Below, in pieces: positions 1,317 through 52,266 of a stretch of DNA of 64,000 bases. How positions within the stretch are numbered: the stretch's first letter is position 1; every line of letters begins with the position of its first letter. The stretch is taken from assembly GCA_910586295.1 (NCBI GenBank), contig CAJUGE010000011.1, positions 22,798-86,797 of the forward strand, in the 5' to 3' direction. Below the pieces are notes generated by a model. It was not told the origin of the DNA. It worked only from the letters and a program-made list of their open reading frames with translations, and searched no databases. Both the position numbers and the translations under genes were made by a program. The stretch comes from an uncultured Bacilli bacterium (GTDB lineage: Bacteria > Bacillota_I > Bacilli_A > RF39 > UBA660).

Positions 1317-1334
1317 AAGTAAGGTGAGAAATTT

Positions 1335-2552: not shown

Positions 2553-2880
2553 TACAGGAAACATTAACACTAGACCCTTCATTTTATTTAATTAAAAACT
2601 ATAGAAAAATGTTGTAATGAATCAAATAGAGAATTTAGACCAGATGAGTTAGAAAAAGTTTACGAAGAATTTAATAAAAAAATGATGAGTAAACCCTATG
2701 TTCTAAGTTTTAGAAGAAATTAGTATAATATTATATGCTATTTAATTTTCAAAAATCATATAATAATTTGAATATTAATTATACTTATGATAAAACAAAA
2801 AAACAGAAACCGAGTAAAGCATTTATGTTGTTTTACTCTTTATTTTATGCTAAAATAACTAACAAAAGAAAGGAGAACAA

Positions 2881-3610
2881 TATGAAAATAATTGGAGTTT
2901 TTAATCCATGTGGTTTAAATCCATTAAATGATGTAGTCCTAGTACCAGCTGATTTTAATGTTGTATATCAAGATGACAATGGGAAGTTATTTATAAAATA
3001 TTTAGATTCAGGAGACTTCTCTATAATTACACTTAAACTAGAACAATTAAAAAGCTCAGCAGAAAAAATCAAAGAAATAGAATTATATCTTACAGAAGGA
3101 ATAAGTCAGATAGGTTATCCTACTAAGTATAAACCTATAAGAAATGAATTTATGGTATATCCATTCACATTAGATGGAACAACAAAACATGCCTATAGTA
3201 GCTTAGAAGAATTTCCTACTGGTAAAATAATGATTGACCCAAATATCCAAACAAGTAATGAAGCTTTTAATCAAGCAGTTATTTTTCCTAATCAAGAATT
3301 ATATATAGGACAATTTAAATATATATATGAACAAGCTAAACCTTATCTAAATATTAATGGAAATATAACAAAATTTATGGGATTAATAAACTGGCTTATA
3401 AATAACATGTATCTAGAGGAAGCATATGAATTAATCATGCAAATGAAATCATCAGGAGCTAATCTTAAAGAATTCAATCATCCAAGGAAGCTATTTGTTT
3501 TGGATGGTTCAACTAACTTTTTAGATTATTCATTGAATAGAATAGCAGACCTTAATTTAATTAAAGAGAATACTAAAAGTCTTAAATTAAAAATATTTGA
3601 TAGAAAATAG
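2881..3610 (+). CDS. Hypothetical protein (243 aa), no recognisable domain
   Basis: AAAGGAGAACAATATG RBS/start; followed by a strong terminator hairpin; the ORF-track start at 2735 lacks an RBS. Confidence 0.6.
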
Positions 3611-3633
3611 ACTCCAAATAATTGGAGTTTTTA
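3611..3633 (+). terminator. Rho-independent terminator (actccaa/ttggagt stem, T-run); a second 8-bp hairpin lies at 3641-3671
   Basis: Perfect 7-bp stem with 4-nt loop then TTTTT; immediately after the stop at 3610. Confidence 0.75.
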
Positions 3634-3676
3634 TTATTTCCCAAGCCCCTTATTTCCTGGGAAATACTACATATAA

Positions 3677-3705
3677 TTTACAATAAGCCAAAAAAGTGAT
3701 ATAAT
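3677..3705 (+). promoter_or_regulatory. Sigma-A-type promoter for mnmE: TTTACA-17-TGaTATAAT
   Basis: Near-consensus -35 (3677-3682) and extended -10 (3700-3705) with 17-bp spacer, 25 bp upstream of the mnmE RBS. Confidence 0.6.
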
Positions 3706-3729
3706 TTTTGACATTCGGAGGGATGTAAA

Positions 3730-5085: not shown

Positions 5086-5097
5086 GAGGAATAAAAA

Positions 5098-6956: not shown

Positions 6957-7662
6957 AGATGAGTTTATAAACGAATTAAAGAAACTAGGTATATCATTAA
7001 CTCAAAGTGAACTGAATAGTTTTGAAACTTATAAAAATCTATTACAAGAATATAACAAAAAATTTAATCTTACTACAATTATAGAAGACGAATCAATATA
7101 TTTGAAGCACTTTTATGATTCACTTTGTCTTATGAAAGTAGTTGAATTAAAAACTGCCAAAACAATCTTAGATATTGGGACAGGAGCAGGATTCCCAGGA
7201 ATACCTTTAGCAATTATAAACAAAGATAAAAAAATAACATTAGTTGAGTCTAATGGAAAAAAAGTTTCATTCTTAACTTTTTTAAAAGAAAAACTAAACT
7301 TGAATAACGTAGAAATATATAATTCTAGAGCAGAAGATTTTGCAAAAGCCCATAGAGAAGAATATGACATAGCAACATCAAGAGCAGTATCACACTTAAA
7401 AATAATTACTGAATTAGAATTTCCTACTATTAAGGTAAAAGGTTTATTCTTACCTTTAAAATCTAATATTGAGAAAGAATTAGAAGTAACTAAAGAATTT
7501 ATAAAAGAATTAGATGGTTCTTTAGAAGAAACGATAACTTATACCCTACCCTACGAAAACTCAAAAAGAACAATTCTTAAAATAAGAAAACTTCAAGAAA
7601 CAAACCATCTATACCCTAGAGACTATAGCAAAATCTCAAAAGAATTAAAAAACTTAAGATAA
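6949..7662 (+). CDS. rsmG: 16S rRNA (guanine527-N7)-methyltransferase RsmG (GidB)
   Basis: LDIGTGAGFPGIPLAI SAM motif; 8-nt overlap with mnmG. Confidence 0.9.
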   Translation: MNKDEFINELKKLGISLTQSELNSFETYKNLLQEYNKKFNLTTIIEDESIYLKHFYDSLCLMKVVELKTAKTILDIGTGAGFPGIPLAIINKDKKITLVESNGKKVSFLTFLKEKLNLNNVEIYNSRAEDFAKAHREEYDIATSRAVSHLKIITELEFPTIKVKGLFLPLKSNIEKELEVTKEFIKELDGSLEETITYTLPYENSKRTILKIRKLQETNHLYPRDYSKISKELKNLR

Positions 7663-7665
7663 ATA

Positions 7666-7703
7666 AAAAGTACTAAGATATTAATATCAAAAGTACTTTT
7701 TTA
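7666..7703. terminator. Bidirectional Rho-independent terminator (9-bp stem aaaagtact/agtactttt) shared by rsmG (+) and tsaC (-)
   Basis: Perfect inverted repeat flanked by an A-run upstream and a T-run downstream. Confidence 0.65.
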
Positions 7704-8287
7704 TTTAGAAATTATTCTATCAAGTTCTTCATTTTTAACTTTACCTTCTCTTATAATGACTTTCTCATTCTTAACCTCTACTATTGTAGAAGTCGTATCA
7801 TCACTTATGTCCCCACTATCTATTATATAATCCACCTTTCCATATAACTCATCCATAATATTATCAATTTTAATGCCTGTGTTACTACCAGAAAGATTTG
7901 CACTAGGAACAACTATAGGACATTAGCGTGCTTAATAATATTATAAGATAGTCCATCTTTAAGAAGTATAAATCCAACAATTCCAGTTTCAGAAACAATA
8001 TTAGGCAAAGTGCTCTCTTTTATTTTAAATAGTATTGTTAGATAACCAGGCCAAAAAGCTTCAATTAATTTTTGCTCTATTGGACCAATAAAATCTACAA
8101 TTTTCTCTAACGTAGAAATATCAGAAATTAAAACACATAAAGGTTTTGCTCTAGGCCTATCCTTAATTTCATAAATCCTTTGACAAGCAGTTTCGTCTAA
8201 AGCATTGGTATACATACCATATACTGTATTAGTTTTAAAAATAGCTATTTTTCCTCTCTTTATATCATTAGTTATTTCAATCATCAT
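7701..8287 (-). pseudogene. tsaC: L-threonylcarbamoyladenylate synthase TsaC/YrdC-family gene, frameshifted around 7907-7910
   Basis: N-terminal ORF (7913-8287) has YrdC motifs (KDRPRAKPLCVLI, IIKHANV); the C-terminal part (PIVVPSANLSGSNTG...VDYIIDSGD...STIVEV) is in the -1 frame; one extra C in a CC run (GTCC->GTCCC, minus strand) restores the frame. Confidence 0.7.
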
Positions 8288-8494
8288 ATTATCATCAATA
8301 TCTTTTTAATTAATATACTTTCTCATATTAAAACACCTAATAAATTTATAATAATATACTTTTATTATATTAAAAAGATTCATAGCTAAATTTATTCTAA
8401 TTATAAAAAATAATATATTACAAGTACTTGAAAAAAAAATCAAAATACTATAAAATGTATATATAAATAAAGAATAAGAAATGGGGCTGATTAT

Positions 8495-9817
8495 ATGAAC
8501 AGAGAAAGTGAAATAATTAATGTAAGAATAGATGAAATTATACCAAACAGGTTTCAACCAAGACTAACATTCAATGAGTCTGAATTACAGAGTCTTGCAG
8601 AATCAATAAAGATGCATGGAATTATACAACCACTAGTACTAAGACGTATTGGAGAAAAATTTGAAATTATTGCAGGAGAAAGAAGATACAAAGCATCAGT
8701 GATGGCAGGATTAACTACAGTTCCAGCAGTAATTATGAATATTGACGACCAAAAAAGTGCTGAAGTAGCGATAGTTGAGAACTTACAAAGGAAAAATCTT
8801 ACTGCCATAGAAGAAGCTCAATCTTATAAAAAGCTTTTAGATAAAGGCTATCTTACACAAGAAGAACTTGCAAATAAAATGGGTGTAACTCAACCTACTA
8901 TCGCAAATAAATTAAGATTATTAAATCTTACTGAGGCTGCACAACAAGCATTACTTAAAAATCAAATATCTGAACGACATGCTAGAAGTCTATTAGCAAT
9001 TGCAAACCCAAATATGCAAATAAGTATGCTAAATAGAATTATAGGTGAGAGATTAACAGTTAGACAAACTGATGAAGAAATAAGCAAATTGTTAGGAAGA
9101 AGTCCAGAGACTATTAATGACGCTATAGAGAACTATGGCGAAAGTAGTTCAGGCAATTCTCAAGTTCTAACTCCAGAAGAACCACAAAATTCCGTCGCCC
9201 CAGTAGTGGAAACTATAAAAACTCCAACTTTTGATAATCTTGTCCAACCTACACCTACTATTTCTTCATATATAAATCCAGCTGCATTTGATGTCGATAT
9301 AGATAGTATAAAATCTAATTCAGTAGATATAATACCAGAACATAAACCAAGTGACATAGACATGTTGATGAGGACTGAATCTCAAGAAAGTAGCAATACT
9401 GCTGTAGAAGAAACGCCTAAGAAAGTATCGCTAGAAGATGTACCAACAAATATAGATATGGGTAGTATAGTAAATTCATCGAATATGGCAGTAAATCCTT
9501 TTCAAAACTTGGAAACTCCAGAAACGCCATTTGAAATACCTACTCCAACTTTTGAAAAACCTTATAGTGATCCAACACCTGTATCACAACCTACATATGC
9601 CCCAGGAAGCAGTCTCATAGATGAATTTAGGCAACAACAACCAAAACCACTAGAACAAAATATAGAAAAAAATTCAAATACTAAAAGCATATCATCTGCA
9701 ATAACTGTAGCAAGAAATGAAGTAAGAAAAATCGAAGATTTAGGATTTCAAGTAGATACAGAAGAATTTGACTTTGAAGATATGTATCAAATAATAATAA
9801 AAATAAAGAAAGATTAA
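8495..9817 (+). CDS. parB: ParB/Spo0J partition protein with a long low-complexity C-terminal extension
   Basis: IIAGERRYKAS, HTH region MGVTQPTIANKLRLL; about 240 aa of Pro/Thr/Ser/Glu-rich tail; no parA/soj or noc upstream. Confidence 0.85.
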   Translation: MNRESEIINVRIDEIIPNRFQPRLTFNESELQSLAESIKMHGIIQPLVLRRIGEKFEIIAGERRYKASVMAGLTTVPAVIMNIDDQKSAEVAIVENLQRKNLTAIEEAQSYKKLLDKGYLTQEELANKMGVTQPTIANKLRLLNLTEAAQQALLKNQISERHARSLLAIANPNMQISMLNRIIGERLTVRQTDEEISKLLGRSPETINDAIENYGESSSGNSQVLTPEEPQNSVAPVVETIKTPTFDNLVQPTPTISSYINPAAFDVDIDSIKSNSVDIIPEHKPSDIDMLMRTESQESSNTAVEETPKKVSLEDVPTNIDMGSIVNSSNMAVNPFQNLETPETPFEIPTPTFEKPYSDPTPVSQPTYAPGSSLIDEFRQQQPKPLEQNIEKNSNTKSISSAITVARNEVRKIEDLGFQVDTEEFDFEDMYQIIIKIKKD

Positions 9818-15411: not shown

Positions 15412-15470
15412 ATTTAATGAATAAAAAAATCAAATCAACCACAATATTAATCAGAAAGGTTGGTTTTTTA

Positions 15471-15995
15471 ATGAAAAAACTATTAATAATAATCGCAGGA
15501 CTTATATTAGTAATAACATTTATAAATAAAGAAGAAGACTATGTAATAGTACCAAATACATCAATAAGATTCAGAATAATTCCAAATAGCAATACTATTG
15601 AAGACATAACTATAAAAGAAAAAATAAAAGACGAAATAAACGATGTAATAAAAAATATAGAAGCATCAAGCACAGACATAACAACTTCCAGAGAAAAAAT
15701 AAACTCTGCAATACCAGAAATAGAAGAAAAGATAAATGATTTATTTGAAAAAGAGAACTATACAAAAGATTATAAAATAAACTATGGAATGAATTACTTT
15801 CCAGAAAAAATATATAAAGGTGTAAAATACCCAAGTGGAGAATACGAATCGATGGTAATCGAAATAGGAGAATCATCTGGAGATAACTACTGGTGTGTAC
15901 TATTCCCACCGCTTTGTATGATAGACGCAGAAGAAAGTGAAGAAGTAGAATATAAATTCTTTATAAGTGAAATAATAAAAAAATATTTTAAATAG
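15471..15995 (+). CDS. spoIIR: Stage II sporulation protein R
   Basis: Signal peptide; IRFRIIPNSNT, YPSGEYES and NYWCVLFPPLCM match conserved SpoIIR blocks (IRLRILANSDS / YPAGEYEA / NWWCVLFPPLCF). Confidence 0.8.
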   Translation: MKKLLIIIAGLILVITFINKEEDYVIVPNTSIRFRIIPNSNTIEDITIKEKIKDEINDVIKNIEASSTDITTSREKINSAIPEIEEKINDLFEKENYTKDYKINYGMNYFPEKIYKGVKYPSGEYESMVIEIGESSGDNYWCVLFPPLCMIDAEESEEVEYKFFISEIIKKYFK

Positions 15996-17911: not shown

Positions 17912-18634
17912 ATGAAAAAGAAAAAACTTGTAATATTTTTTCTTGCATTAATTGGAGTATACATAATTTATAACTTAACATATAAAGAAACAACAAACTA
18001 TCTTGCCATAGGCGATGAATTAGCAAAAGGCCACACCCCATTTGATACTTATAGTGAATCGTACACTGATTATCTTTATAATTACCTTTTGTCTCAAGAT
18101 GAAAAAATGACAATAAACAAAGAATTTATAAGTGAAGATTTAAGAATAAAAGACTTACTAGAAAATATAAAAAATCCCAGTGTTTATCAAGAAAAAAATC
18201 TACCACAAGCTATAAAAAATGCTAATATTATAACAATTTCTATTGGAAGTGAAGAATTATTTGCAAAGCTTAGATCAAATAATTGGAAAACTTCAAATGA
18301 AAGATTATACGAATTTATAGATGAAATGATTAAAGAACTAGAGATTTTAATAGATGAAATACAAAAAATAAAAAAGACAGAAATTTATGTAATTGGCTAT
18401 TATAATCCATTAGTATATAATGAAGAAAATGAAACAAAATTAAAAAGTTTATTTAATTACATAGATATAAAATTAAAGGATTTAGAGAAAACAAAAAATA
18501 TTAATTATGTAGAAATAGCTTCAGAATTTAGCTCAAAAACTTATTATCTTCCAAATAAAGAGCATGCTTTTCCATCCTTAGAAGGTTATAACTATATTGC
18601 AAATGAAATAATAAAAAAAATAGAAAGTAATTAA
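17912..18634 (+). CDS. Secreted SGNH/GDSL-hydrolase-like protein with non-canonical catalytic residues
   Basis: Signal/TM anchor; block I LAIGDEL (Ser->Glu), block V-like EHAFPSLEGY. Confidence 0.4.
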   Translation: MKKKKLVIFFLALIGVYIIYNLTYKETTNYLAIGDELAKGHTPFDTYSESYTDYLYNYLLSQDEKMTINKEFISEDLRIKDLLENIKNPSVYQEKNLPQAIKNANIITISIGSEELFAKLRSNNWKTSNERLYEFIDEMIKELEILIDEIQKIKKTEIYVIGYYNPLVYNEENETKLKSLFNYIDIKLKDLEKTKNINYVEIASEFSSKTYYLPNKEHAFPSLEGYNYIANEIIKKIESN

Positions 18635-19711
18635 CTTCTTAAATAACTTTCTAAAAATTTATCAATATTGCCATCTAAAACTCCATTTACATCACTTGTC
18701 TCTTCCAAAGTTCTCAAATCTTTTACCATACTATAAGGACACATTACATAATTTCTAATTTGACTTCCAAAATTCACATCCATAACAGCGCCCTTTAATT
18801 CATTTAGTTTCTTATCAACAGTCTCTTTCTCAAGTAAATAAAGTTTACCTTTTAAAATATCCATAGCTTTTTCTTTATTCTTTATTTGACTTCTCTCATT
18901 TTGACAAGTAACAACAATATTTGTTGGAATATGAGTAATTCTAACAGCAGAATCCGCAGTATTTACACCTTGTCCCCCTGCTCCACTACTTCTATAAACA
19001 TCTATTCTTAAATCTTCATCTCTAATTATAACATTTACACTAGTATCAATTTCTGGAGTAACTAAAACTGAAGCAAAAGAAGTATGACGTCTTTTATTTG
19101 AATCAAAAGGACTAATTCTAACCAACCTATGAACACCAGTCTCACCTTTTAAATAACCAAACGCATTTAATCCCTTCACATTAATAGTAACACCTTTAAT
19201 TCCAACTTCCTCACCAAGTTGTTCGCTAACTATTTCATATTTATAATTAGTCTTAGTAAAATATCTCAAATACATTCTCTTAATCATATTAGCCCAGTCA
19301 TTACTCTCAGTACCACCAGCACCACTATGAATCTCAATATAACAATTATTCTTATCAAACTCACCACTTAGTAAAATCTCATTAGTAAGTTTATTAATAC
19401 TATCATTAATAAATTCTAAATCTTTATTTAAAAGTTGATAATCTTCATCACTACTAGCCATTTCAGAAATTTCTAAATCATCATTAACCATAGTTAAAAT
19501 ACTATCATACAAAGTCACACTATTTTCTAAAAAAGATAATTTCTTAAGAATTTCATTAGAATTACTACTACTCCAAAAATTTTCATCAGAACTAATGGTC
19601 TTTAATTCTTGAATTTCTCTTTTTTTATTAGTATAGTCAAAGTGACCTCCCTAGAGATTCTAACTCTTGTTTTTTTTCAAAAAATATTTCTTTATAATTT
19701 GTTTCCATCAT
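18631..19711 (-). CDS. prfB: Peptide chain release factor 2, with programmed +1 ribosomal frameshift at CTT TGA C (plus-strand 19636-19642)
   Basis: SPF tripeptide and GGQ; N-terminal 24 codons in the 0 frame end in the in-frame UGA of CUU-UGA-C, preceded by the SD-like GGGAGG; remainder in the +1 frame. Confidence 0.95.
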
Positions 19712-20360: not shown

Positions 20361-20687
20361 ATGAACGGAAGTTATTACAAGAATCCAATGTTTCCAATGG
20401 ACACTATGTATGAAAGGGACACTGAAGCTCCAGGAGGCTTAAATGATTTAACTATGGAACAAAGTTACATAGAAAATATTCTTAGATTAAATAAAGGTAA
20501 AAAAGCTACAGTATATTTAAGCTTTACTGATTCAATCAACTGGCGAGATAAAATATTTACTGGAATTATAGAACAAGCAGGAAGAGATCATATAATTTTA
20601 AGTGATCCAGTGACAGGTAAGTGGTATATGCTTCTAATGATATATTTAGATTATGTTGAATTTGATGAAAGAATAAATTATAAATAA
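20361..20687 (+). CDS. Spore coat protein GerQ-family domain protein (short form)
   Basis: EQSYIENILRLNKGKKATVYLSF ... AGRDHIILSDP ... LLMIYLDYVEF match conserved GerQ blocks. Confidence 0.6.
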   Translation: MNGSYYKNPMFPMDTMYERDTEAPGGLNDLTMEQSYIENILRLNKGKKATVYLSFTDSINWRDKIFTGIIEQAGRDHIILSDPVTGKWYMLLMIYLDYVEFDERINYK

Positions 20688-39294: not shown

Positions 39295-39762
39295 ATGTAT
39301 AAGGATTATATAAAATTTTTAATAGAAGCAAAACAACAAACATATGCAAATGAAAACATTGAAAAAGTAGAATCTTCAAGAAAAGGTTCAAAAGATTATG
39401 AATATACTAATGGAACATTTACTTATCACGATACATACTTTGGAGGAATAAAATTTATAGGGGAAGAAGTTATATATAGTGATTCTAAAATTCCTATTTG
39501 GGCAATGAATTATTATGGAGTAACCCTAGATGAAAACTTATCAGAAGAAACAATGGATATGGCATTAAGACCTGCTTTAATGAAAGTGGGAGAAGATGAA
39601 AAAGTTCTTCCAGTAAGAGGACCTAGTGAATTTATAAATGGAGAATATATCTATAAGTTTACATCAAATGGGAATATAGAAGATTTTGAAGGTATCGAAG
39701 AAATATATAAAAGCAAGAAATTAATATATAGATTAAAATGTCATGGAGGAATAATAAAATGA
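39295..39762 (+). CDS. Hypothetical protein (155 aa); resembles a domain-of-unknown-function family seen in Firmicutes
   Basis: Conserved-looking blocks FTYHDTYFGG / WAMNYYG; identification by recall only. Confidence 0.35.
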   Translation: MYKDYIKFLIEAKQQTYANENIEKVESSRKGSKDYEYTNGTFTYHDTYFGGIKFIGEEVIYSDSKIPIWAMNYYGVTLDENLSEETMDMALRPALMKVGEDEKVLPVRGPSEFINGEYIYKFTSNGNIEDFEGIEEIYKSKKLIYRLKCHGGIIK

Positions 39763-40769
39763 TTAAAGTAGCAATAAATGGTTTTGGAAGAATAGGAAGA
39801 TGTGCATTAAGACAAATAAGCGAAAGAGAGGACATGGAAGTAGTCGCAATAAATGATTTAACAGACTCTCTTACCCTAGCTTATTTATATAAATATGACT
39901 CAGTTCATAGAACTTTAGATTCAAAAGTTGGATACGAAGATGATAAAATAGTAGTAAATGGAAAAGAAATAAAAATATATTCAGAAAGTGATCCTAATAA
40001 TTTACCATGGCAAGAACTAGGAATAGATGTAGTTCTTGAATGTACAGGAGTATTTACAAGTAAAGAAAAAGCTAAAGCTCATATAAAAGCAGGAGCAAAA
40101 AAAGTTATCATAAGTGCACCAGCAAAAGATGATGCTAAAACTATAGTATTTGGTGTAAATGAAGAATTACTTTCAAATAAAGATAAAGTTATAAGCACTG
40201 CCTCTTGCACAACAAACTGCTTAGCACCAGTACTTGACATACTCCATAAAAACTATAAAGTAATAAGTGGCTTTATGACAACAGTACACGCTATTACTAA
40301 TGACCAAGAAACTTTAGATATTCCACACAAAAAAGGTATAGAATCTAGACGCGGACGAGCAGCAAGTCTAAACATAATTCCTACCTCTACAGGAGCAGCA
40401 TCACAAATTGGAAAAGTTATACCAGAACTAGATGGAAAACTAGACGGAATTGCTTATAGAGTTCCAGTTGGAGACGGAAGTATTGTTGATCTTACAGTTT
40501 TGGTAGAAGAAAGTACAACAGTAGACAAAGTAAATAGACTTATAAAATCTAATCAAAGCGACGTCCTAAAAATAGTAAATGTACCTCTAGTAAGTAGTGA
40601 TGTTATTGGAACAGAAACAGGAGCAATAGTAGATTCACTATTAACTAAAGTAATAAAACAAGATAAAAAAACATTAATTAAAATCGCAGCCTGGTATGAT
40701 AACGAATGGGGATACACTGCTCAAATGATAAGAACACTAGCACATTGGTGTAAAAAAAATAATCAGTAA
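39759..40769 (+). CDS. gap: Glyceraldehyde-3-phosphate dehydrogenase
   Basis: MIKVAINGFGRIGR NAD-binding N-terminus and active site ASCTTNCLAP; GGAGGA RBS. Confidence 0.95.
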   Translation: MIKVAINGFGRIGRCALRQISEREDMEVVAINDLTDSLTLAYLYKYDSVHRTLDSKVGYEDDKIVVNGKEIKIYSESDPNNLPWQELGIDVVLECTGVFTSKEKAKAHIKAGAKKVIISAPAKDDAKTIVFGVNEELLSNKDKVISTASCTTNCLAPVLDILHKNYKVISGFMTTVHAITNDQETLDIPHKKGIESRRGRAASLNIIPTSTGAASQIGKVIPELDGKLDGIAYRVPVGDGSIVDLTVLVEESTTVDKVNRLIKSNQSDVLKIVNVPLVSSDVIGTETGAIVDSLLTKVIKQDKKTLIKIAAWYDNEWGYTAQMIRTLAHWCKKNNQ

Positions 40770-40779
40770 ATACTACTGA

Positions 40780-42081
40780 CTATTTTTTTATTAAGAAAGC
40801 TGCATATAAAGGTATACTATATATATTGTTATCAAATCCGAAGTTTTTCATAGATAACCGTATAGAATATTTAGGGTTATATTTATTAATATATTCATTC
40901 AAACTTTTAGACTTTGTATTAATAGAAGACTTTACTTCAACTGGTATAATACCACCTTCTCTTTGTAATATAAAGTCAATCTCTGCCTCGTATTTACTTC
41001 TCCAAAAATATATACTAAAACCATTAGTAGTAAAAGTATTAGCAATATAATTCTCAGTAATCGCACCCTTAAATAAGAAATTACCATCTAACATAATATC
41101 AGAAAAATTAACATTAGCCAAATAATTAAGAAGACCAACATCACTTAAATATATTTTAAAATTGTCTTCTTCTTCATATATAGATAAAGGCATCTCTGGG
41201 ACCTTAATCTTCTTACATTTAACTATCATATTACTTGCTAACAACCAATCTAAAGGTAATTCATATTGTCTTTTATTAGAGTTTTTAGATACATTAGAAT
41301 ATTTAAACTTTTTATTATCATTTCCAAGTTGTTTAGGTATACTCTCATATATAGATTGTATCTTAATGCTCTCTTCAGCACTAATAACATACTTTCTCAT
41401 ATCTGCAATATAAGCAGTAATAATATTGCTATGTATGTCTCTATTAAAAGACATCAAATTTTGTTCTTTGTTAATGTAATCCTCTACAGCCTGTGGCATA
41501 CCACCTATACACAAATAAGATTTATAAATATCGAGGCACTTATTATGAAGACTATCTAACATTTTACTAGAATTACTAAAACACAAAGAAATTTCTTCTA
41601 ACAATTTTTCATTACCAGTAGCAAGCATAAATTCCTCAAAATCCATAGGATACAAATACTTAATAATGACTTTGCCTACAGGAAAAGAAGAATTAAATCT
41701 TCTTAACTTTACACCAAGTAAAGAACCAGCACATACAATATGATACTTTTCTTCCTCGCAAAAATATTTAAGTGCCATAATCGCACGTTCACTAACTTGT
41801 ATTTCATCAAAAAATATAACAGTATTCTGAACATCTATATTAATATTCTTACTTATTTCTATATGTTTAATTACATCAACAGGATTAACAGTCTCCTCAA
41901 AAATACTAGTTATACCTTCTTCTTTTTCTAAATTAATATAAACATAACTGTTAAACTCTTTTCTACAAAATTCATCTAGTATGTATGTTTTCCCAGTTTG
42001 TCTAGCACCAACAACCATTAAAGGAATAAAGGAACTATTATTATTCCAATCTTCTAAAACTCTACTAAACTTCCTATACAT
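40780..42081 (-). CDS. AAA+ ATPase (AAA_14 + DUF4143 family)
   Basis: Walker A GARQTGKT and Walker B IFFDEIQ; C-terminal DUF4143-like region. Confidence 0.75.
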   Translation of the reverse strand: MYRKFSRVLEDWNNNSSFIPLMVVGARQTGKTYILDEFCRKEFNSYVYINLEKEEGITSIFEETVNPVDVIKHIEISKNINIDVQNTVIFFDEIQVSERAIMALKYFCEEEKYHIVCAGSLLGVKLRRFNSSFPVGKVIIKYLYPMDFEEFMLATGNEKLLEEISLCFSNSSKMLDSLHNKCLDIYKSYLCIGGMPQAVEDYINKEQNLMSFNRDIHSNIITAYIADMRKYVISAEESIKIQSIYESIPKQLGNDNKKFKYSNVSKNSNKRQYELPLDWLLASNMIVKCKKIKVPEMPLSIYEEEDNFKIYLSDVGLLNYLANVNFSDIMLDGNFLFKGAITENYIANTFTTNGFSIYFWRSKYEAEIDFILQREGGIIPVEVKSSINTKSKSLNEYINKYNPKYSIRLSMKNFGFDNNIYSIPLYAAFLIKK

Positions 42082-44930: not shown

Positions 44931-45031
44931 TAGTATTCGCCCAAAATTTTTAAGTAAATAAAATGTTAAATTTTTTATATATTAATCTCTTTCTCTATAT
45001 ATAATAGTATAATAGAGATAAGGTGATAAAT

Positions 45032-46177
45032 ATGAAAACAATTAAAGACTTAAACGTAGAAAATAAAAAAGTAATACTTAGGGTTGACTACAATGTTCCT
45101 ATTCAAGACGGAAAAGTCATAGATAATAATAGAATAAAACAAAGTTTAGAAACTATTAATTATTTAAAAGAGCATAATGCTAAGATAATATTGATGTCCC
45201 ACTTAGGAAAAATTAAGTCAGAAGAAGATAAAGAAAAGAACACTCTACTCCCTGTAAAAGAAGAATTAGAAAGTCTTTTAAATGAAAAAATAAAGTTTTC
45301 TCATGAATTAAAAGGCAAAGAATTAGAAGATTTAGTTAATGGTTTAAACCCCAAAGAAATCTTATTATTAGAAAATACTAGATACATGGACTATCCAAAT
45401 AAATTAGAAAGTAATTGTGATAAAGAATTATCATCATACTGGGCTTCTTTAGGAGATGTATTTGTTTTAGATGCCTTTGGAAGTGCCCATCGTGCTCATG
45501 CATCAACATATGGTATAAGTGAGTATCTATTGCATGCTGTTGGATTTCTTATAGAAAAAGAATTAAAAGAATTAGACATCATTAAAAATGAAACAAAAAC
45601 AATAATATTGGGTGGAGCAAAAGTAAGTGATAAAATAGGAGTAATAAAAAATTTATTACCTACTTCAAACAAAATACTAATTGGTGGTGCTATGTGTGGA
45701 ACTTTCCTAAAAAGCCAAAACATTAATGTAGGAAATACCTTTGTTGAAGAAGAAAAAATAGAAGAAGTGAAAAAGTTGATAGACCAAGATAAAATAATTT
45801 TACCAATTGATGTTGTAACTGAAAACGGTATCAAAGAAATAAATAATATATCTAATGATGAGAGTATATTCGATATAGGTCCAAAAACAATAGAATTATT
45901 TACTTCTCACTTAGAAAATGAAAAATTAGTTTTGATTAATGGTACTATGGGATTATATGAAAATCCAAAATATGAAAACGGAACAAAAGAACTATTTAAT
46001 TATTTATTATCAAAGAAAGTAAAAACAGTAGTATGTGGAGGAGACACAGGAAACGCTAGTAAAAAATATAATTTTACTCCCTACTATCTATCTACAGGTG
46101 GAGGTGCATCTCTAGAATATCTTGAAGGAAAAGAACTACCAACATTAAAAATTATGGAGGATAAAAATGAACAATAA
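45032..46177 (+). CDS. pgk: Phosphoglycerate kinase
   Basis: N-terminus KTIKDLNVENKKVILRVDYNVP; 384 aa. Confidence 0.95.
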   Translation: MKTIKDLNVENKKVILRVDYNVPIQDGKVIDNNRIKQSLETINYLKEHNAKIILMSHLGKIKSEEDKEKNTLLPVKEELESLLNEKIKFSHELKGKELEDLVNGLNPKEILLLENTRYMDYPNKLESNCDKELSSYWASLGDVFVLDAFGSAHRAHASTYGISEYLLHAVGFLIEKELKELDIIKNETKTIILGGAKVSDKIGVIKNLLPTSNKILIGGAMCGTFLKSQNINVGNTFVEEEKIEEVKKLIDQDKIILPIDVVTENGIKEINNISNDESIFDIGPKTIELFTSHLENEKLVLINGTMGLYENPKYENGTKELFNYLLSKKVKTVVCGGDTGNASKKYNFTPYYLSTGGGASLEYLEGKELPTLKIMEDKNEQ

Positions 46178-46796
46178 AATAAAAGAAACAATTAATTATT
46201 ATAAATTATGTACAAAATTAAAAGACACTATTAGAAAAGGTCCAATTATATGGAATGCAAAAAGAGAAAGAATAGAAAGCGTAGCAGAACATATTTATGG
46301 AGTGCAAATGCTAGCAATATCTATCTATTACCAGTTTGAATATAAACTAAATCTAATGAAAATTATTTATATGTTAGCAATTCACGAATTAGAAGAAATA
46401 GAAATTGGAGACTTAGCATTCTTCGAAACCACAAGAGAAGAAAAACTAATTAAAGGTAAAAAAGCAACAGATTATATACTAAAAGATTTTCTTGGAAAAG
46501 ATGAAATATCATCATTGCTTGATGAATACAATGAGAGAAGTACTGAAGAAGCAAAGTTTGCTTATCATTGTGATAAATTAGAATGTGATATTCAAATGAA
46601 GTTGTATGACCAAGAGGGATGCTTTGATTTAAATGATCAACCTAATAATCCTATTATAAATAATCCGAGTGTAAAAAAAGTTTTAGACAGTGAAAAAAAT
46701 ATTTCTAATGCATGGATTGAATTTGATAGAGATAAATATAAAGACGATAAAAATTTCTTAAATATAATTAATTATTTAAAAGAAAATAAAATATAA
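46167..46796 (+). CDS. HD-domain phosphohydrolase (YfbR/HD_3-like 5'-nucleotidase family; HE in place of HD)
   Basis: ESVAEHIYGVQMLA ... LAIHELEEIEIGD pattern of the HD_3 family. Confidence 0.55.
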   Translation: MNNKIKETINYYKLCTKLKDTIRKGPIIWNAKRERIESVAEHIYGVQMLAISIYYQFEYKLNLMKIIYMLAIHELEEIEIGDLAFFETTREEKLIKGKKATDYILKDFLGKDEISSLLDEYNERSTEEAKFAYHCDKLECDIQMKLYDQEGCFDLNDQPNNPIINNPSVKKVLDSEKNISNAWIEFDRDKYKDDKNFLNIINYLKENKI

Positions 46797-46809: not shown

Positions 46810-47505
46810 ATGAAAACAATAATACTTAATCATAAAAGTTATCTTTCATATGAAGAACTACAAAATTATAAAAACGTATTAGAAACTCAAGCTATAGAAA
46901 ATATAAATTTAGTTTTGATGCCTACTCTAGCCTATTTATCAGAATTTAAGAGTTCTAAAATACAGATAGGTGCACAAAATTTTTATAGCTACAATTTTGG
47001 CTCATATACTGGAGAAATATCGCTAGAAACTTTAAAAAGTTTAAACGTAAGTTACACCTTAGTGGGACATCCAGAAAGATTAATGTTAAAACTTGATTCT
47101 TATCAAGAAGTAAAAGACAAATTTTTTAGAAGTATAAATCTAGGTTTTAAAACTATTCTTTGCCTAGGACATGATGAAAATGAAAAAATATTAAAAAAAG
47201 AATTAAAGTTTTTCTTTAATGGTATAGAAGAAAGTGTATTAAAAAACTTAATAATTGCATTCGAGCCAGCATCCAAAATAGAAGGAGAAACAATAAACTT
47301 AAAACAAATAAAATATGTAAATAACTTTATAAAAGAATATATGACAAAGCATTTTGAAATAAACGTCCCTTTTATATATGGAGGTTCAGTCAATAAAAAT
47401 AATATTAAAGAAATATTAGAAATAACAGATGGAGTCATACTAGGAAGAAATAGTACAAACATTAACGAAATGATAGAAATAATTAATTTAATAAAAGGAG
47501 TCTAA
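46810..47505 (+). CDS. tpiA: Triosephosphate isomerase (divergent)
   Basis: GAQN, VGHPER (His), AFEP (Glu), YGGSV blocks present, but the NWKMN and AIGTG motifs are strongly diverged. Confidence 0.7.
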   Translation: MKTIILNHKSYLSYEELQNYKNVLETQAIENINLVLMPTLAYLSEFKSSKIQIGAQNFYSYNFGSYTGEISLETLKSLNVSYTLVGHPERLMLKLDSYQEVKDKFFRSINLGFKTILCLGHDENEKILKKELKFFFNGIEESVLKNLIIAFEPASKIEGETINLKQIKYVNNFIKEYMTKHFEINVPFIYGGSVNKNNIKEILEITDGVILGRNSTNINEMIEIINLIKGV

Positions 47506-48498
47506 ATGGAAGATACAAGTTTTATAGATTTAACAAAAGAAGAAAATTTAAAAAGAATGAATATTAATTCTGAATTAATTATTCCATTTAAAAATGTTAT
47601 GTACAATCTTCAAGAAATTTTCAACCGTGATGGATATACAACAAAAATAAATTATAAAGAGTTTTTTGAACATGCAGCTTTAGGAGAAGAAGAATATGAT
47701 AAAAACAAAATACTTAATTCAAAAAAGTTCAAAGAATATATTGAAAAAGTAAATCGTTTAAGAAGTTATGGCAATCTAGGAAATATTGACATAGAAGAAG
47801 GATACCTAATGTTTTTAAGCAAACAAGGTATATTAACCATATCTATTCTTCCAGTATCAAAATCAAAAGAAATTAATTATAAAGTTTGGCAAAACAAAAT
47901 ATCAATAGATGAGACTTATTTAAATAGTCCGGATTTAGAATCGCTCCTAGCCCATGAATTTATTCATTTTATAACTGAGTTTGTATATGGAGATTTAGTA
48001 CCAGTTTCAACACCTTACATGCAATTTCATATCGAATGTCTTACCGAACTATTAACACACGAAGCATATCCAAATGCTAATGGCTACAATATTTTAGGCA
48101 GATTAATACAATTTAGCAGGGACGTATTGCAGATAAAAGATTTTACATTTTTTTTAAAAAGAGAAATGAATCCAAAATATACAGAAGAATGGAACATATT
48201 TTTTAAAAAATCAAATGACTTCTTTTTAAAAAACAATAATAAATATACTGGATATTCAACTATTTGTGATGTGGACAAAGAAGATATTCCAGGTATTATA
48301 GATATTCAAAGAACACTTATTATCATATTGATAAATGGAATAGACTATAGTCGCATAGAAAACATACAATATATTAAAGAAAAAATCAAAGAAGTTCCAT
48401 ATTTATTTTTAGATAGAGAATATATAACAGAATATATAAGTTTTCTAGATAGTAGAATAGAAGAATTAAACTCAACTTTAGAAACTAGAAAATTATAA
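47506..48498 (+). CDS. Hypothetical protein with HExxH motif (putative zinc metallopeptidase-like)
   Basis: LLAHEFIHFITEF contains HEFIH; AAAGGAG RBS overlapping the tpiA stop. Confidence 0.5.
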   Translation: MEDTSFIDLTKEENLKRMNINSELIIPFKNVMYNLQEIFNRDGYTTKINYKEFFEHAALGEEEYDKNKILNSKKFKEYIEKVNRLRSYGNLGNIDIEEGYLMFLSKQGILTISILPVSKSKEINYKVWQNKISIDETYLNSPDLESLLAHEFIHFITEFVYGDLVPVSTPYMQFHIECLTELLTHEAYPNANGYNILGRLIQFSRDVLQIKDFTFFLKREMNPKYTEEWNIFFKKSNDFFLKNNNKYTGYSTICDVDKEDIPGIIDIQRTLIIILINGIDYSRIENIQYIKEKIKEVPYLFLDREYITEYISFLDSRIEELNSTLETRKL

Positions 48499-48583: not shown

Positions 48584-49511
48584 ATGAATAGAATTGTGAA
48601 TAATTTAAAAGAAAAATTAAGAGTAGAAAATTTAATATATGATATAAGAGGAAAACAGGTTATGCTAGATAGTGACCTAGTGGTTTTATATGTATGTAAA
48701 AATGGAACCAAAGAAATAAATCAAGCTGTAAAAAATAATATAAAGAAGTCCCCAAAAGATTTAGTTGGAAATTAACAGATGAAGAATGTAAAAGTTTTTT
48801 AGTCAAAAAATTTGACAAAAAAATAGAAACTAGAGGAGGTAAATACAAAAATCCTAGAGTTTTTACAGAACAGGGAATAGCAATGTTAACAACAATTATA
48901 AAAACAAAAATAGCAACCGAAGTTAGCATAAAAATTATGGACGCTTTTGTACAAATGAGACCTTTATAAAAAGTAATATCTTATTAAAACATACTATAAA
49001 TATATCCAATAAAATAGAAAAGATAGATAAAAAGTTATTAGAACATGACAAAAAATTTGAAATATTGTTTTCTAGTTTTAAGAAGAAAGAACAAAAAAAT
49101 TAGTATACTTAAATGAACAAGTTTTTGACGCCTACATCGGAATAATAAATATTTTGAAAGAAGCGGAAAAAGAGATAGTCATAATAGATGGATATGCAGA
49201 CTTTAATGAATCGGAAATAATTTCTAAACTACAAGTAAACGTAACACTAATTATTAAAACTAAATCAAAACTATTTAAAGAAGAAATAAAAAAATATAAT
49301 CACAATATAATCATTTAACTGTATTAAAAAATGACAACTTCCATGATAGATACTTTCTAATAGATAATAAAAATCTTTATCATTGTGGTACCAGTTTAAA
49401 CCATGCAGGAAATAAACCATTAATCTCAACAAACTCGAAGAAAAAGAAATTATAAATATTCTAAGAGAAAAAATAAATAAAACCATAAAAAATTCCACAA
49501 AAATTTATTAA
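48584..49511 (+). pseudogene. ORF6N-domain (phage antirepressor/KilA-N-like) gene broken by five -1 frameshifts, each in a homopolymer
   Basis: IRGKQVMLDSDLVVLY, FTEQGIAMLTT, IMDAFVQMRP, KLLEHDKKFE, QVFDAYIGI and DRYFLIDNKNLYHCGTSL match the ORF6N family but lie in different frames; each junction is restored by adding one base to a T3, T3, A7, T3 or A5 run. Confidence 0.6.
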
Positions 49512-49522
49512 TAAAAGTCACT

Positions 49523-49549
49523 ATCGACATTTAACGACAAAAATCGACA
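49523..49549 (-). promoter_or_regulatory. Two 0A-box-like heptamers (TGTCGAT on the minus strand, 20 bp apart) upstream of spo0A
   Basis: Plus-strand ATCGACA at 49523-49529 and 49543-49549; RC TGTCGAT matches 6/7 of the Spo0A box TGTCGAA. Confidence 0.35.
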
Positions 49550-49560
49550 ATTTGAGACAA

Positions 49561-49590
49561 AACTAGAGCATAAAAACTCTAGTTTATTTT
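49561..49590 (+). terminator. Hairpin terminator (aactagag/ctctagtt) + T-run upstream of spo0A
   Basis: 8-bp perfect inverted repeat followed by TTTATTTT. Confidence 0.5.
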
Positions 49591-49636
49591 ATAATACATG
49601 TAATATAATAAAAAAGTAAAAATAAGGAGAAAAAAG

Positions 49637-50401
49637 ATGAAAAAAAGAATTATGGTAGTAGACGATAACAAAGCAATGGTAGAAATGCTTAAAGAATTTT
49701 TTAGCAGTAATTCAAATATTGAAGTAGTTGACACAGCATATGATGGAGAAGAAGCCTGGGAAAAAATTAAAGAAAATTCCAAAAATATTGATGCAGTATT
49801 GCTTGACTTAATCATGCCCAAAAAAGATGGTCTGTATGTTCTAGATAATATCAAAGAATCAAAAATAGACATAAATGTTATAGTTGTAACTAGTTATAAT
49901 GAGCAAGAAACCATAAGAAACATAAGTGAATATGGAGTAAAATACTTTGTATTAAAACCTTTCGACTTAAAAGAATTAGAAAAAAGAATAATGAGTATAA
50001 CATCAAGTAAAAATAAAACTAACAAAATACTAGATTTATCAAACAGTAACATTCAAATTTCAGTGACAAAAATACTTCATGAATTAGGAATCCCATCACA
50101 CATAAAAGGATACACTTACATAAGAGATGCTATAAGTATGGTATATGATAACCCTTCCTTAATCGGAGGAATAACAAAAGAATTATATCCAAGCATTGGA
50201 GAAAAATATGAAACAAGTGTAACAAGAGTTGAACGTGCGATTAGACATGCTATAGAAGTAAGTTGGAACCGCGGAGACTGGAATCTAATGGAAGAAATAT
50301 TCGGGCATTCTGTAGACATAGATAAAGCAAAACCAACAAACTCAGAATTTATAGTTACAATAGCCGACAAATTAAGACTTGAAATGCTTAAAGTTCGCTA
50401 A
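49637..50401 (+). CDS. spo0A: Stage 0 sporulation protein A (response regulator)
   Basis: Receiver domain (DD...D...K); C-terminal Spo0A-specific domain ITKELYPSIGEKYETSVTRVERAIRHAIEVSWNRG ... KAKPTNSEFIVTIADKLRLE. Confidence 0.9.
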   Translation: MKKRIMVVDDNKAMVEMLKEFFSSNSNIEVVDTAYDGEEAWEKIKENSKNIDAVLLDLIMPKKDGLYVLDNIKESKIDINVIVVTSYNEQETIRNISEYGVKYFVLKPFDLKELEKRIMSITSSKNKTNKILDLSNSNIQISVTKILHELGIPSHIKGYTYIRDAISMVYDNPSLIGGITKELYPSIGEKYETSVTRVERAIRHAIEVSWNRGDWNLMEEIFGHSVDIDKAKPTNSEFIVTIADKLRLEMLKVR

Positions 50402-50452
50402 TACTTTTAATTATAACAATAATGTGCTAAAATAATACTAGGTGAAGCAAAT

Positions 50453-51964
50453 ATGAAAAAAGTGATATTACTAGTTTTAGATGGTTTTGGTTTAAACAGC
50501 AGTGATTATGGAAATGCAGTCAAACTTGCAAAAACTCCAGTTTTAGACAAACTTACAACAGTATTTCCATGCTCAGAACTAGAAGCAAGTGGCACTGAAG
50601 TGGGCTTGCCAAAAGGTCAAATGGGAAACAGTGAAGTTGGTCACATGACTATAGGAAGTGGTCGTATAACTAACCAACCACTAACTCACATAAACGAACA
50701 AATAAAAACCAAAGCATTTTTTAGTAACCAAACTCTACTAGATTTAATGAACTATGTCAACGAAAAAGGTAGCACACTTCATTTAATTGGACTACTTTCA
50801 AACGGAAGCGTTCATTCGAGTGCTAATCACTTTTATGCTGCCCTTGCAATGGCAAAACTATGCAAAGTAAAAAGAGTTGCATTCCATTTTATAACTGATG
50901 GTAGAGATACAAGTCCAACAAGTGGAGTCACATTTGTAAAAGATTTCATGGAACGTGCAAGAAAATTAAACCTAGGAGAACTTGCAACAATAAGTGGAAG
51001 ATACTATGCTATGGACAGAGACAATAGATGGGAAAGAATAAAAAAAGCATATGATGCTATTGTGTATGGAATGGGAAACGAATTTAGAGAATATGAACAA
51101 TGCTTCAAAGAACATTATAAACGAGAAATCACAGATGAATTTATAAATCCTAGTGTAATCACAAAAGGTAAAGAAATAAAAGATGGAGACGCAGTGTTAT
51201 TTATTAACTTTAGACCAGAAAGAATGAAAGAATTAATAGATGCGCTTACTACTGAAAACTTTAAAATGTTCCAAACAAAACATTTTGAAAATCTTCGCCT
51301 TGCTTCAATCTTTAATATACACGAGAACGTTGAATATGCTTTTGACACAGAAAAACCTACTAATACATTTGGAGAATACATAGATGGACTTGATTTCACT
51401 CAAGCAAGAATAGCAGAAACAGAAAAATATGCTCATGTAACATACTTCTTTGATGGAATGAAAGACTTAAACAGTACAAAGATTAATAAAATATTAATAC
51501 CTAGTCCTCAAGTTCCCACATATGATATGAAGCCAGAAATGAGTGTAGGAGAAGTAACAGAAGCAGTATTAAAAACATTAGACAATGACTATGACTTTAT
51601 ATTGGTTAACTTTGCAAATCCAGACATGGTAGGACACACAGGAAACTTGCAAGCAACAATTGACGCTATTGAAATATGTGATTTCTGTTTAGGAAAAATC
51701 TTTGAAAAAGCTAGAGAACACTTCTATGAACTAATAATAACTGCTGACCATGGAAATGCAGAAAAAATGTTAACAAAAGATGGAGAACCAGTAACAAGCC
51801 ACACAACAAGTAAAGTTCCGTTTATACTTTGCAATGAAGAATATAACTTAAAAAGCGAAGGCTCTCTAAGAGATATAATACCAACTATAATAGATATATA
51901 TGAAATTAAAAAACCTGACAAAATGACAGGAGAAAGTTTATTAATTAAACCAGAGCAACTATAA
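50453..51964 (+). CDS. gpmI: 2,3-bisphosphoglycerate-independent phosphoglycerate mutase
   Basis: VLLVLDGFGL N-terminus; 503 aa; alkaline-phosphatase-like C-terminal motifs TADHGN. Confidence 0.95.
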   Translation: MKKVILLVLDGFGLNSSDYGNAVKLAKTPVLDKLTTVFPCSELEASGTEVGLPKGQMGNSEVGHMTIGSGRITNQPLTHINEQIKTKAFFSNQTLLDLMNYVNEKGSTLHLIGLLSNGSVHSSANHFYAALAMAKLCKVKRVAFHFITDGRDTSPTSGVTFVKDFMERARKLNLGELATISGRYYAMDRDNRWERIKKAYDAIVYGMGNEFREYEQCFKEHYKREITDEFINPSVITKGKEIKDGDAVLFINFRPERMKELIDALTTENFKMFQTKHFENLRLASIFNIHENVEYAFDTEKPTNTFGEYIDGLDFTQARIAETEKYAHVTYFFDGMKDLNSTKINKILIPSPQVPTYDMKPEMSVGEVTEAVLKTLDNDYDFILVNFANPDMVGHTGNLQATIDAIEICDFCLGKIFEKAREHFYELIITADHGNAEKMLTKDGEPVTSHTTSKVPFILCNEEYNLKSEGSLRDIIPTIIDIYEIKKPDKMTGESLLIKPEQL

Positions 51965-52266
51965 TAATTTTAGTTGCTTTTTATACATATTTTTCCAAAA
52001 AGTGCTTTGAAAAAATGCAAAGATATTAAAATAAATAATAACAAGATTATATTTTTAATTATTTATATGAGCATATTTTTAGTAGACGAAAGTGAATTCT
52101 ATTAATAATTTAATTTAAAGTTATGAACACTCAAAATTTTCATAGCTTTTTCTATTGTGTATAAATTAGAAGTTATCAACATTTTTTGTAAACTTAATAA
52201 AGAAAATAATCAAACAAATAGATTTCAAATATAATTAGTGATATGATAAATCAAAAGGAGTACATT

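Follow-up and report, generated by a model that had tools for sequence, protein, structure and literature searches.

The spo0A gene of this uncultured, AT-rich gut bacterium (Bacilli) is preceded by a 37-bp stretch (positions 49523–49559 of the 64-kb window, i.e., the whole stretch of DNA analysed here), a candidate operator through which Spo0A probably autoregulates its own gene. It contains four 0A boxes arranged head-to-tail in an exact 10-bp phase, and this arrangement recurs upstream of spo0A in related species. Judging from the boxes, the self-regulation of this spo0A would be ordinary; its position between the glycolytic genes tpiA and gpmI is unusual but typical of the lineage.

The ORF at 49637–50401 (+ strand) encodes Spo0A, a protein of 254 aa. 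Residues 5–118 match the Pfam family Response_reg (E = 5e-26), and residues 143–246 match Spo0A_C (E = 2e-40) over the full length of the model (positions 1–104), which bears out the identification made in the earlier note from the C-terminal effector domain. The translated receiver domain carries D9, D10, D57, T85 and K107, i.e., the acidic pocket, the phospho-acceptor Asp and the conserved Thr and Lys, and matches the Spo0A receiver structures 1DZ3/1QMP (E = 8e-23). The C-terminal domain aligns with PDB entries 1LQ1/1FC3 (E of about 3e-43), and its recognition helix, RVERAIRHAIEV, is identical to that of the Bacillus protein in these structures, of which 1LQ1 is the DNA-bound one.

All four boxes have the same orientation, the 0A motif being their reverse complement on the coding strand (+) of spo0A. 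Boxes 1 (ATCGACA, 49523–49529) and 3 (ATCGACA, 49543–49549) both read TGTCGAT in reverse complement and match the consensus TGTCGAA at 6 of 7 positions; box 2 (AACGACA, 49533–49539; reverse complement TGTCGTT) and the degenerate box 4 (TGAGACA, 49553–49559) match at 5 of 7. All four boxes are imperfect and their quality drops toward the promoter, but the TGTCG core is kept in the three full boxes (1–3). The bases reported to make specific contacts in the 0A box, G2, C4 and G5 (PMC3485338), are intact in these three. The spacers (ttt, aaa and att) are uniformly 3 bp long, and a 20-nt unit repeated twice was detected at this site by a repeat search and by TRF alike. The earlier note described two ATCGACA heptamers 20 bp apart; both are present, but they are boxes 1 and 3 of the four-box array, boxes 2 and 4 having been overlooked.

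Counts of the single heptamer are not informative: ATCGACA is found 3 times in the 64 kb against 3.05 expected, a non-significant difference, and WWCGACA and TGTCGAA are likewise at chance frequency in the window, the three perfect copies of TGTCGAA (25277, 36185 and 37983) being all intragenic. Because the heptamer is at chance level, its count was dropped as evidence, and phasing and conservation were taken as the test instead. The window contains a single phased triplet CGACA-N5-CGACA-N5-CGACA, compared with none in 100 shuffles; the arrangement of the boxes is thus non-random, whereas the number of heptamers is not. Tandem-box patterns with up to two mismatches are absent elsewhere in the window, save for one intragenic chance match.

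For the comparison with relatives, the 200 bp upstream of spo0A were scanned for CGACA in 36 species-level relatives. The possibility, raised in the earlier note, that relatives lack the motif is not borne out: the core is found on the coding strand in 34 of the 36 species (the exceptions being L012 and L019), at a density of 8.5/kb versus a background of 0.21/kb, a 41-fold enrichment. Pairs of CGACA exactly 10 bp apart are present in 18 of these species, and wherever adjacent copies are spaced by less than 20 bp (22 cases), the spacing is 10 bp without exception. TTCGACA, the reverse complement of a perfect 0A box, accounts for 39 of the 61 boxes in the relatives, and the mean match to this heptamer peaks at +10, +20 and +30 bp (5.35, 4.39 and 4.09 of 7, respectively, versus about 1.8), with no other peaks. 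In an alignment of 11 related spo0A upstream regions, the TCGACA of box 3 is either invariant or conserved to 90% or more, and box 4 belongs to an invariant GACAAAA block. The distal boxes invariably keep their CG dinucleotide; the proximal, weaker boxes of the relatives read TTTACA, TTGACA or TAGACA. The boxes persist next to differing upstream genes (tpiA, ORF6N, KilA-N, genes of unknown function or an S41 protease), including in relatives without an ORF6N gene, and the motif tracks spo0A across gene contexts, Christensenellaceae included. In many relatives, a strong terminator lies directly 5′ of the boxes. Collectively, the recurrence of the core, its 10-bp pairing and the prevalence of the perfect box strongly support the earlier proposal that Spo0A is autoregulated through 0A-like boxes.

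The most likely −10 element of spo0A is the TATAAT at 49604–49609 (+ strand), which is invariant in the alignment of the 11 regions (columns T98–T103). Another TATAAT located upstream (49590–49595, + strand) is a possible alternative but is kept only in the closest relatives (L008–L011). The AT-rich, −10-like region of the earlier note thus contains two TATAAT sequences, of which specifically the second is the conserved one. There is no good −35 element 17–18 bp upstream of the 49604 TATAAT, where the sequence reads TAGTTT or AGTTTA, and a ribosome-binding site, AAGGAG (49624–49629, + strand), is located 7 nt before the ATG. The transcription start site is predicted at about 49616, which would place the array at about −57 to −93, wholly upstream of the −35 position. 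The sole + strand match of a sigma-70 scan in the region, TCGACA-16-GACAAT (49524–49551), was rejected, given that the boxes themselves make it up and its score of 9/12 is no better than chance. A crude, B. subtilis-based pattern for a sigma-H-type promoter (AGGA...GAAT) had no match in the upstream regions of the 36 species, which is a weak negative.

Between the array and the promoter lies a perfect 9-bp inverted repeat, AAACTAGAG-N8-CTCTAGTTT (49560–49585, + strand; arms 49560–49568 and 49577–49585), confirming the hairpin reported downstream of the boxes. Its RNA form has a dG of −10.4 kcal/mol (z = −4.35), and it passes a terminator scan (9-bp stem with 3 GC pairs, tail ATTTTAT) whose count of matches is not above chance. 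It is the only + strand terminator-like element between pgk and spo0A, is only partly conserved and is absent in L009, L013, L017, L018 and L020. Interpretation as an RNA structure is unsupported, as the ACTAGA/TCTAG half-sites are kept or lost in relatives without compensatory changes; furthermore, the whole window gave no match when scanned against Rfam at gathering thresholds, indicating that the hairpin does not belong to any known class of RNA element. It may serve the upstream unit as a terminator or, alternatively, act as an operator that overlaps the −35 position; most likely, it would end the transcript of pgk, tpiA and the inserted genes. A terminator-like hairpin between an array and a promoter is odd for an activator site, and the array, centred about 60–90 bp upstream of the presumed start site, is far away for direct contact with sigma; both observations speak against the operator model, as do the imperfection of all four boxes and the lack of the core in L012 and L019.

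Given the 3-bp spacers, the four boxes should follow one another every 10 bp along a single helical face and would form two tandem 20-bp dimer sites. We propose that phosphorylated Spo0A binds the better distal boxes and spreads cooperatively to the weaker, promoter-proximal ones, thereby autoregulating a single sigma-A-type promoter with the −10 element at 49604–49609 and transcription starting at about 49616. The gene would then be an independently promoted unit lodged between tpiA and gpmI. Positive feedback appears the more likely sign of this autoregulation, because the whole array is upstream of the −35 position and the −35 sequence is poor.

The main competing view is that Spo0A does bind but that the array is negative, capping spo0A expression or blocking read-through from the upstream glycolytic genes, much as the B. 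subtilis 0A1 and 0A2 boxes repress. The B. subtilis boxes 0A1–3 as a group have been modelled as mainly repressive (PMC12090719). Moreover, in the relatives L022–L042, the promoter already combines a good −35 (TTGATA) with an extended −10 and so needs no activator, with some members containing an extra box in the spacer, and the array of the window itself lies inside the upstream transcription unit, 5′ of its only terminator-like hairpin. However, the very poor −35 in the group to which the window belongs fits an activator-dependent promoter, all boxes are upstream of the −35 rather than over the core promoter, and the strong terminators directly 5′ of the boxes in many relatives leave nothing to roadblock. 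On balance, we consider a negative role unlikely, if well worth keeping in view.

A further candidate reader of the phased repeats is another response regulator that binds tandem repeats, of the PhoP/WalR type (OmpR family), with Spo0A not involved at all. Such proteins bind direct repeats such as TT(A/T/C)ACA or TGTWAH, typically placed on the same side of the helix; indeed, the weak proximal boxes of the relatives, TTTACA, TTGACA and TAGACA, resemble these hexamers. Nevertheless, exact copies of the 7-mer 0A consensus predominate among the boxes (39/61), every distal box keeps the CG dinucleotide, the motif follows spo0A through different gene contexts, including that of Christensenellaceae, and the period is exactly 10 bp (7 + 3), as at footprinted Spo0A sites, compared to roughly 11 bp for PhoP/WalR sites, all of which renders this alternative very improbable. 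Still less can be said for the motif cluster having arisen by chance in AT-rich, low-complexity DNA or being a relic of the inserted ORF6N element. Although ATCGACA is at chance frequency and the GC content of the region is only 27%, this explanation is refuted by the absence of the phased triplet from all shuffles, the 41-fold enrichment over 36 species with strict strand and 10-bp spacing, the periodic TTCGACA score peaks and the presence of the array in relatives that have no ORF6N gene. Autoregulation by Spo0A is the reading that we retain as likely.

In B. subtilis, transcription of spo0A is under feedback control by Spo0A~P via 0A boxes (PMC12090719), and, similar to the window, several boxes (0A1–0A4) with the same TGTCGAA core precede the gene. 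However, B. subtilis has two promoters, the sigma-A-dependent Pv and the sigma-H-dependent Ps, and its boxes are dispersed, some between the promoters and some over them, whereas the window contains one sigma-A-like −10, no sigma-H-like motif recognizable by the crude pattern, and an uninterrupted series of four boxes with a strict 10-bp pitch that lies entirely upstream of the promoter; furthermore, spo0A follows tpiA in the window but spoIVB in B. subtilis. The spo0A gene of C. difficile is reported to be sigma-H dependent and to adjoin spoIVB. C. difficile Spo0A binds the region upstream of its own gene, where the Spo0A-DBD has high affinity for a consensus 0A box situated about 75 bp 5′ of the start codon; the presence of several shifted species suggests that there is more than a single site (PMC3485338). 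The consensus box is a likeness to the window, but a phased four-box array is not described there. Same-orientation boxes 3 bp apart also are characteristic of tandem 0A-box dimer sites, namely, the abrB promoter, the phi29/Nf A2c promoter and 1LQ1. The 1LQ1 complex we take to be a Spo0A tandem dimer on same-orientation boxes with a 3-bp separation. The footprinted site in phages phi29 and Nf consists of two 0A boxes 3 bp apart, bound by a Spo0A tandem dimer (PMC2731898). Whereas each of these sites has two boxes, the array in the window corresponds to two tandem-dimer units in a row. In addition, sites of the abrB/phi29/Nf type repress because they overlap or lie downstream of core promoters, unlike the four boxes in the window, which are upstream of the promoter of spo0A itself.

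Autoregulation of Spo0A through 0A boxes is already known, and the accepted picture of it is unchanged; the gene order is a modest curiosity. What is gained is a concrete candidate Spo0A operator and promoter for uncultured, genome-reduced gut Bacilli, whose ability to sporulate is so far no more than a prediction based on gene content (PMC10868615). The strict 10-bp pitch combined with declining box quality provides a clean natural template for studies of cooperative Spo0A oligomerisation. The array also suggests that spo0A might be controlled here by one sigma-A-type promoter only, the sigma-H switch known from model organisms being absent.

With respect to genomic context, gap (39738–40769) precedes a run of glycolytic genes that starts with pgk (45023–46177, + strand), followed by tpiA (46810–47505, + strand; Pfam TIM, E = 1.6e-43), the clade-conserved upstream neighbour of spo0A; on the other side, spo0A is followed by gpmI (50453–51964, + strand; Pfam iPGM_N/Metalloenzyme), the conserved downstream neighbour, as the earlier note had it. 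The order gap...pgk-tpiA...gpmI on one strand is that of the usual Firmicute gap-pgk-tpiA-gpmI-eno cluster, but throughout this clade, spo0A with its own putative promoter sits between tpiA and gpmI, and this species additionally has an HD-domain gene, a 330-aa ORF and a pseudogene scattered among the glycolytic genes. The 330-aa ORF (47506–48498, + strand), the start of which abuts the tpiA stop, contains a HEFIH motif but has no Pfam match; it is present in L001–L006 and restricted to contigs of this species, a tblastn search of L007–L077 giving no match. The pseudogene (48584–49511, + strand) matches Pfam ORF6N with its first fragment, and three-frame translation against the intact 308-aa orthologue from L008 (ORF6N, E = 1.6e-30) revealed at least five frame breaks, in agreement with the degraded phage-type gene described in the earlier note; the stop at its end is 12 nt upstream of box 1. 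Only these two genes are recent insertions at the species level.

The pgk-tpiA-spo0A-gpmI order is kept in about 28 related species-level MAGs and on 19 independent contigs of this species, arguing against an assembly artefact. The tpiA-spo0A-gpmI arrangement is thus inherited throughout this whole clade of uncultured Bacilli and provides a handy synteny marker for it. The neighbourhood had been called non-canonical, and indeed no ORF of the 64-kb window contains a spoIVB (Peptidase_S55) or recN domain; the genes immediately upstream of spo0A are tpiA, the 330-aa ORF and the ORF6N pseudogene instead of the canonical recN-spoIVB-spo0A order. Yet, this layout is clade-typical rather than peculiar to this genome. 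Literature searches on spo0A beside tpiA/gpmI or in RF39-type lineages yielded gene-content surveys, in which neither this synteny nor this operator is described.

The clade-wide placement of spo0A between tpiA and gpmI may conceivably be functional and not accidental, although we find this doubtful. Leaky glycolytic read-through past the weak hairpin would then supply basal, growth-coupled Spo0A, which in Bacillus comes from a separate vegetative promoter, and Spo0A-driven transcription could run on into gpmI, because no terminator follows spo0A in the genus to which the window belongs. Phosphoglycerate mutase governs the 3-phosphoglycerate reserve of spores and, if this were true, would be tied to the sporulation decision. 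The 51-nt spo0A-gpmI spacer has no terminator but contains an extended −10-like sequence, TGcTAAAAT (50425–50433). In distant relatives, a clear terminator and promoter separate the two genes, which rules out co-transcription as a clade-wide feature.

Besides spo0A, core sporulation genes in the 64-kb window include spoIIR (15417–15995, E = 1e-35) and gerQ (20361–20687, E = 5e-39), the two that the earlier note had recognized.

The 254-aa product of the gene at 49637-50401 (+ strand) can be securely assigned to Spo0A by sequence comparison. Pfam recognizes a Response_reg receiver domain over residues 5-118 (E 5e-26) and, at residues 143-246, Spo0A_C in full length (E 2e-40), and the C-terminal half aligns with the effector-domain structures of Bacillus Spo0A, 1FC3 and 1LQ1 (E ~3e-43), from which RVERAIRHAIEV, including the recognition helix, does not differ. 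The receiver residues D9, D10, D57, T85 and K107 are visible in the translation.

The earlier note had described two ATCGACA heptamers upstream of this gene. Both are present, at 49523 and 49543 (reverse complement TGTCGAT), but the note overlooked two further boxes, AACGACA at 49533-49539 (reverse complement TGTCGTT) and TGAGACA at 49553-49559. The four boxes are separated by 3-bp spacers, with the CGACA/AGACA cores starting exactly 10 bp apart; a repeat search and TRF resolve the array as two copies of a 20-nt unit. All three full boxes retain T1-G5 of the 0A box, TGTCGAA, and thus G2, C4 and G5, for which specific contacts have been reported (PMC3485338). The 3-bp separation is shared with the footprinted Spo0A site of phages phi29 and Nf, which consists of two 0A boxes (PMC2731898). 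The concern that the motif might simply be frequent applies to ATCGACA alone, which is at chance level in the window (3 versus 3.05 expected), but not to the phased triplet: the window has a single CGACA-N5-CGACA-N5-CGACA, and 100 shuffles gave none. A looser tandem-box pattern recovers, across the window, only the spo0A array and one intragenic chance match. Perfect TGTCGAA heptamers at 25277, 36185 and 37983 are all intragenic and occur at chance frequency (3 versus 2.7 expected).

Across 36 upstream regions (the window and 35 relatives), the motif is retained in 34, with a coding-strand CGACA no more than 200 bp from the start codon, and its density upstream of spo0A reaches 8.5 per kb versus 0.21 per kb per strand over the remainder of the loci. 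At least one CGACA pair exactly 10 bp apart is found in 18/36 regions, and close spacings equal 10 bp in 22/22 cases. The perfect 0A box (TTCGACA on the coding strand) accounts for 39 of the 61 boxes and ATCGACA for 14. With the most distal box of 23 non-redundant species as reference point, agreement with TTCGACA averages 5.35, 4.39 and 4.09 of 7 at +10, +20 and +30 bp, respectively, and is near the background of 1.8 elsewhere, +40 included. What the clade shares is thus an array of four boxes along one face of the helix, their quality dropping towards the promoter. In Christensenellaceae, 0A cores also occur upstream of spo0A, yet they are single or otherwise spaced. The cores in both the clade and Christensenellaceae fit the general pattern of autoregulation by Spo0A (PMC12090719; PMC3485338), and the autoregulation proposed in the earlier note gains support from box phasing and conservation.

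The eleven closest upstream regions, once aligned, share two invariant blocks, GACAAAA of box 4 and TATAAT at 49604-49609, with TCGACA of box 3 either invariant or conserved to at least 90%. Given its invariance, TATAAT is likely the -10 element of the spo0A promoter, which would place the transcription start at ~49616; the ribosome-binding site AAGGAG follows at 49624-49629. The -35 position of the window (TAGTTT/AGTTTA) is a poor match. The promoter is clearer in a more distant group of relatives (loci L022-L042), where TTGATA, a 17-nt spacer and TGnTAcAAT lie just downstream of a similar array and are followed by the strongly conserved leader GCGTGTAGTAAATAAG. In one sub-clade (L022-L034, L040 and L042), a leader segment, TTGCGTGTAGTAAATAAG, is strongly conserved between the -10 element and the ribosome-binding site, ~15-45 nt before the start codon of spo0A. 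No sigma-H-like pattern was detected in any upstream region, a weak negative given that the pattern is a rough one based on B. subtilis.

We propose that Spo0A~P would occupy the array as two tandem dimers, loading the better distal boxes before the weaker proximal ones, and would thereby control the sigma-A-type promoter of its own gene. The upstream position of the array and the poor -35 in the window's genus favour activation. Repression is possible, as other clade members have a good -35 and 0A boxes of B. subtilis behave repressively. Between the array and the putative -10 lies a perfect 9-bp inverted repeat (49560-49585, + strand), which folds at -10.4 kcal/mol (z -4.35) and passed the terminator scan; from pgk to spo0A, the + strand has no other terminator-like element. 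The repeat is retained in L008 and L010, partial in L011, L015 and L059 and missing from L009, L013, L017, L018 and L020, with no compensatory changes among the compared relatives; many relatives instead carry a strong terminator immediately upstream of the boxes. Most likely, the hairpin terminates the upstream transcription unit in the window's genus; alternatively, it might be an operator overlapping the -35 position. Rfam yielded no match anywhere in the window.

Pfam scans of essentially all window ORFs of at least 90 aa place spo0A after gap (39738-40769), three minus-strand accessory genes, pgk (45023-46177), an HD_3 gene (46167-46796), tpiA (46810-47505), a 330-aa ORF (47506-48498) and a fragmented ORF6N gene (48584-49511), and before gpmI (50453-51964) and two ABC exporters (52243-53997 and 54000-55730). 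Nowhere in the 64 kb does any of these ORFs show the architecture of SpoIVB or RecN; spoIIR (15417-15995) and gerQ (20361-20687) lie elsewhere in the window. The neighbourhood was thus described correctly, and the earlier observation of spo0A, its 0A-like motifs and its setting is confirmed as a whole. Since yidC, jag, mnmE, mnmG, rsmG and parB occupy the window start (411-9817), spo0A lies at most ~50 kb from the probable replication-origin region.

The exact Spo0A protein recurs on many independent metagenome contigs with unchanged gene order. A scan with one genome per species yielded species-level MAGs of 36 relatives, whose labels are Bacilli, Mollicutes, Tenericutes or Firmicutes and whose Spo0A identities range from 93% to 47%; Christensenellaceae and Clostridia provide the next, more distant matches. 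In tblastn searches with the window's proteins, about 28 of the 36 MAGs share the order pgk-tpiA-spo0A, mostly followed by gpmI, at TpiA identities down to ~30%; the non-canonical position is thus an old, inherited trait of this clade of uncultured AT-rich Bacilli. The context differs in a sub-group (L035-L039) and likewise in Christensenellaceae. Sporulation has been predicted from gene content in parts of the uncultured orders RF39, RFN20 and ML615J-28 (PMC10868615); our literature search found no published description of spo0A between tpiA and gpmI. Three points are new: the strict arrangement of the array in four boxes, the apparent absence of any sigma-H promoter, and the order tpiA-spo0A-gpmI shared across the clade. 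They are useful but would not surprise a specialist.

Only the ORF6N gene and the 330-aa ORF are recent arrivals. Over its first 63 codons, the former aligns with the initial half of the ORF6N model, and the rest is traceable through at least five frame changes against the intact 308-aa orthologue (E 1.6e-30 to ORF6N) of a 93%-identical relative (L008:4938-5864); the window copy is a pseudogene. The 330-aa ORF, which begins directly after the tpiA stop codon, has no Pfam match, occurs solely on contigs of the window's own species and probably arrived together with the ORF6N element; its LAHEFIHF is an HExxH-like motif. In relatives, the tpiA-spo0A interval is empty or holds a single variable accessory gene, such as the intact ORF6N gene, a KilA-N gene (L009:3738-4601) or unrelated genes of unknown function (L011:4982-5797, L022:4995-5795 and another in L031). 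The interval is an insertion hot spot, with inserts always upstream of the array.

Downstream, the 51-nt spo0A-gpmI spacer of the window's genus contains a conserved extended -10, TGcTAAAAT (50425-50433), and no terminator. The corresponding interval of distant relatives holds a clear terminator plus a separate promoter; hence, spo0A is syntenic with the glycolytic genes while in general lying outside their operon.

The HD_3 gene varies at strain level within the glycolytic cluster: some of the species' contigs have it and others lack it (L002 and L005 versus the window). In one relative (L010:2078-3925), pgk and tpiA are joined as one 615-aa ORF. AAA_14/DUF4143 ATPase genes are repeated (40780-42081, - strand; 57375-58301, + strand, truncated) and vary in presence or absence among same-species contigs, with an extra copy after gpmI in L002. 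The two adjacent exporter paralogues are identical over a long part of their ATPase halves, from about NFGxTHLPHING to GNITIISQNPYIFNMTIRENLNLVKE, which suggests recent duplication or gene conversion. GC content is 26-32% across the window. An RF-1/PCRF-domain ORF (18631-19518, - strand), matched from model position 47, fits prfB with the programmed frameshift usual for that gene and, together with ORFs that are clean under genetic code 11, indicates use of this code despite the 'Mollicutes' labels on relatives.
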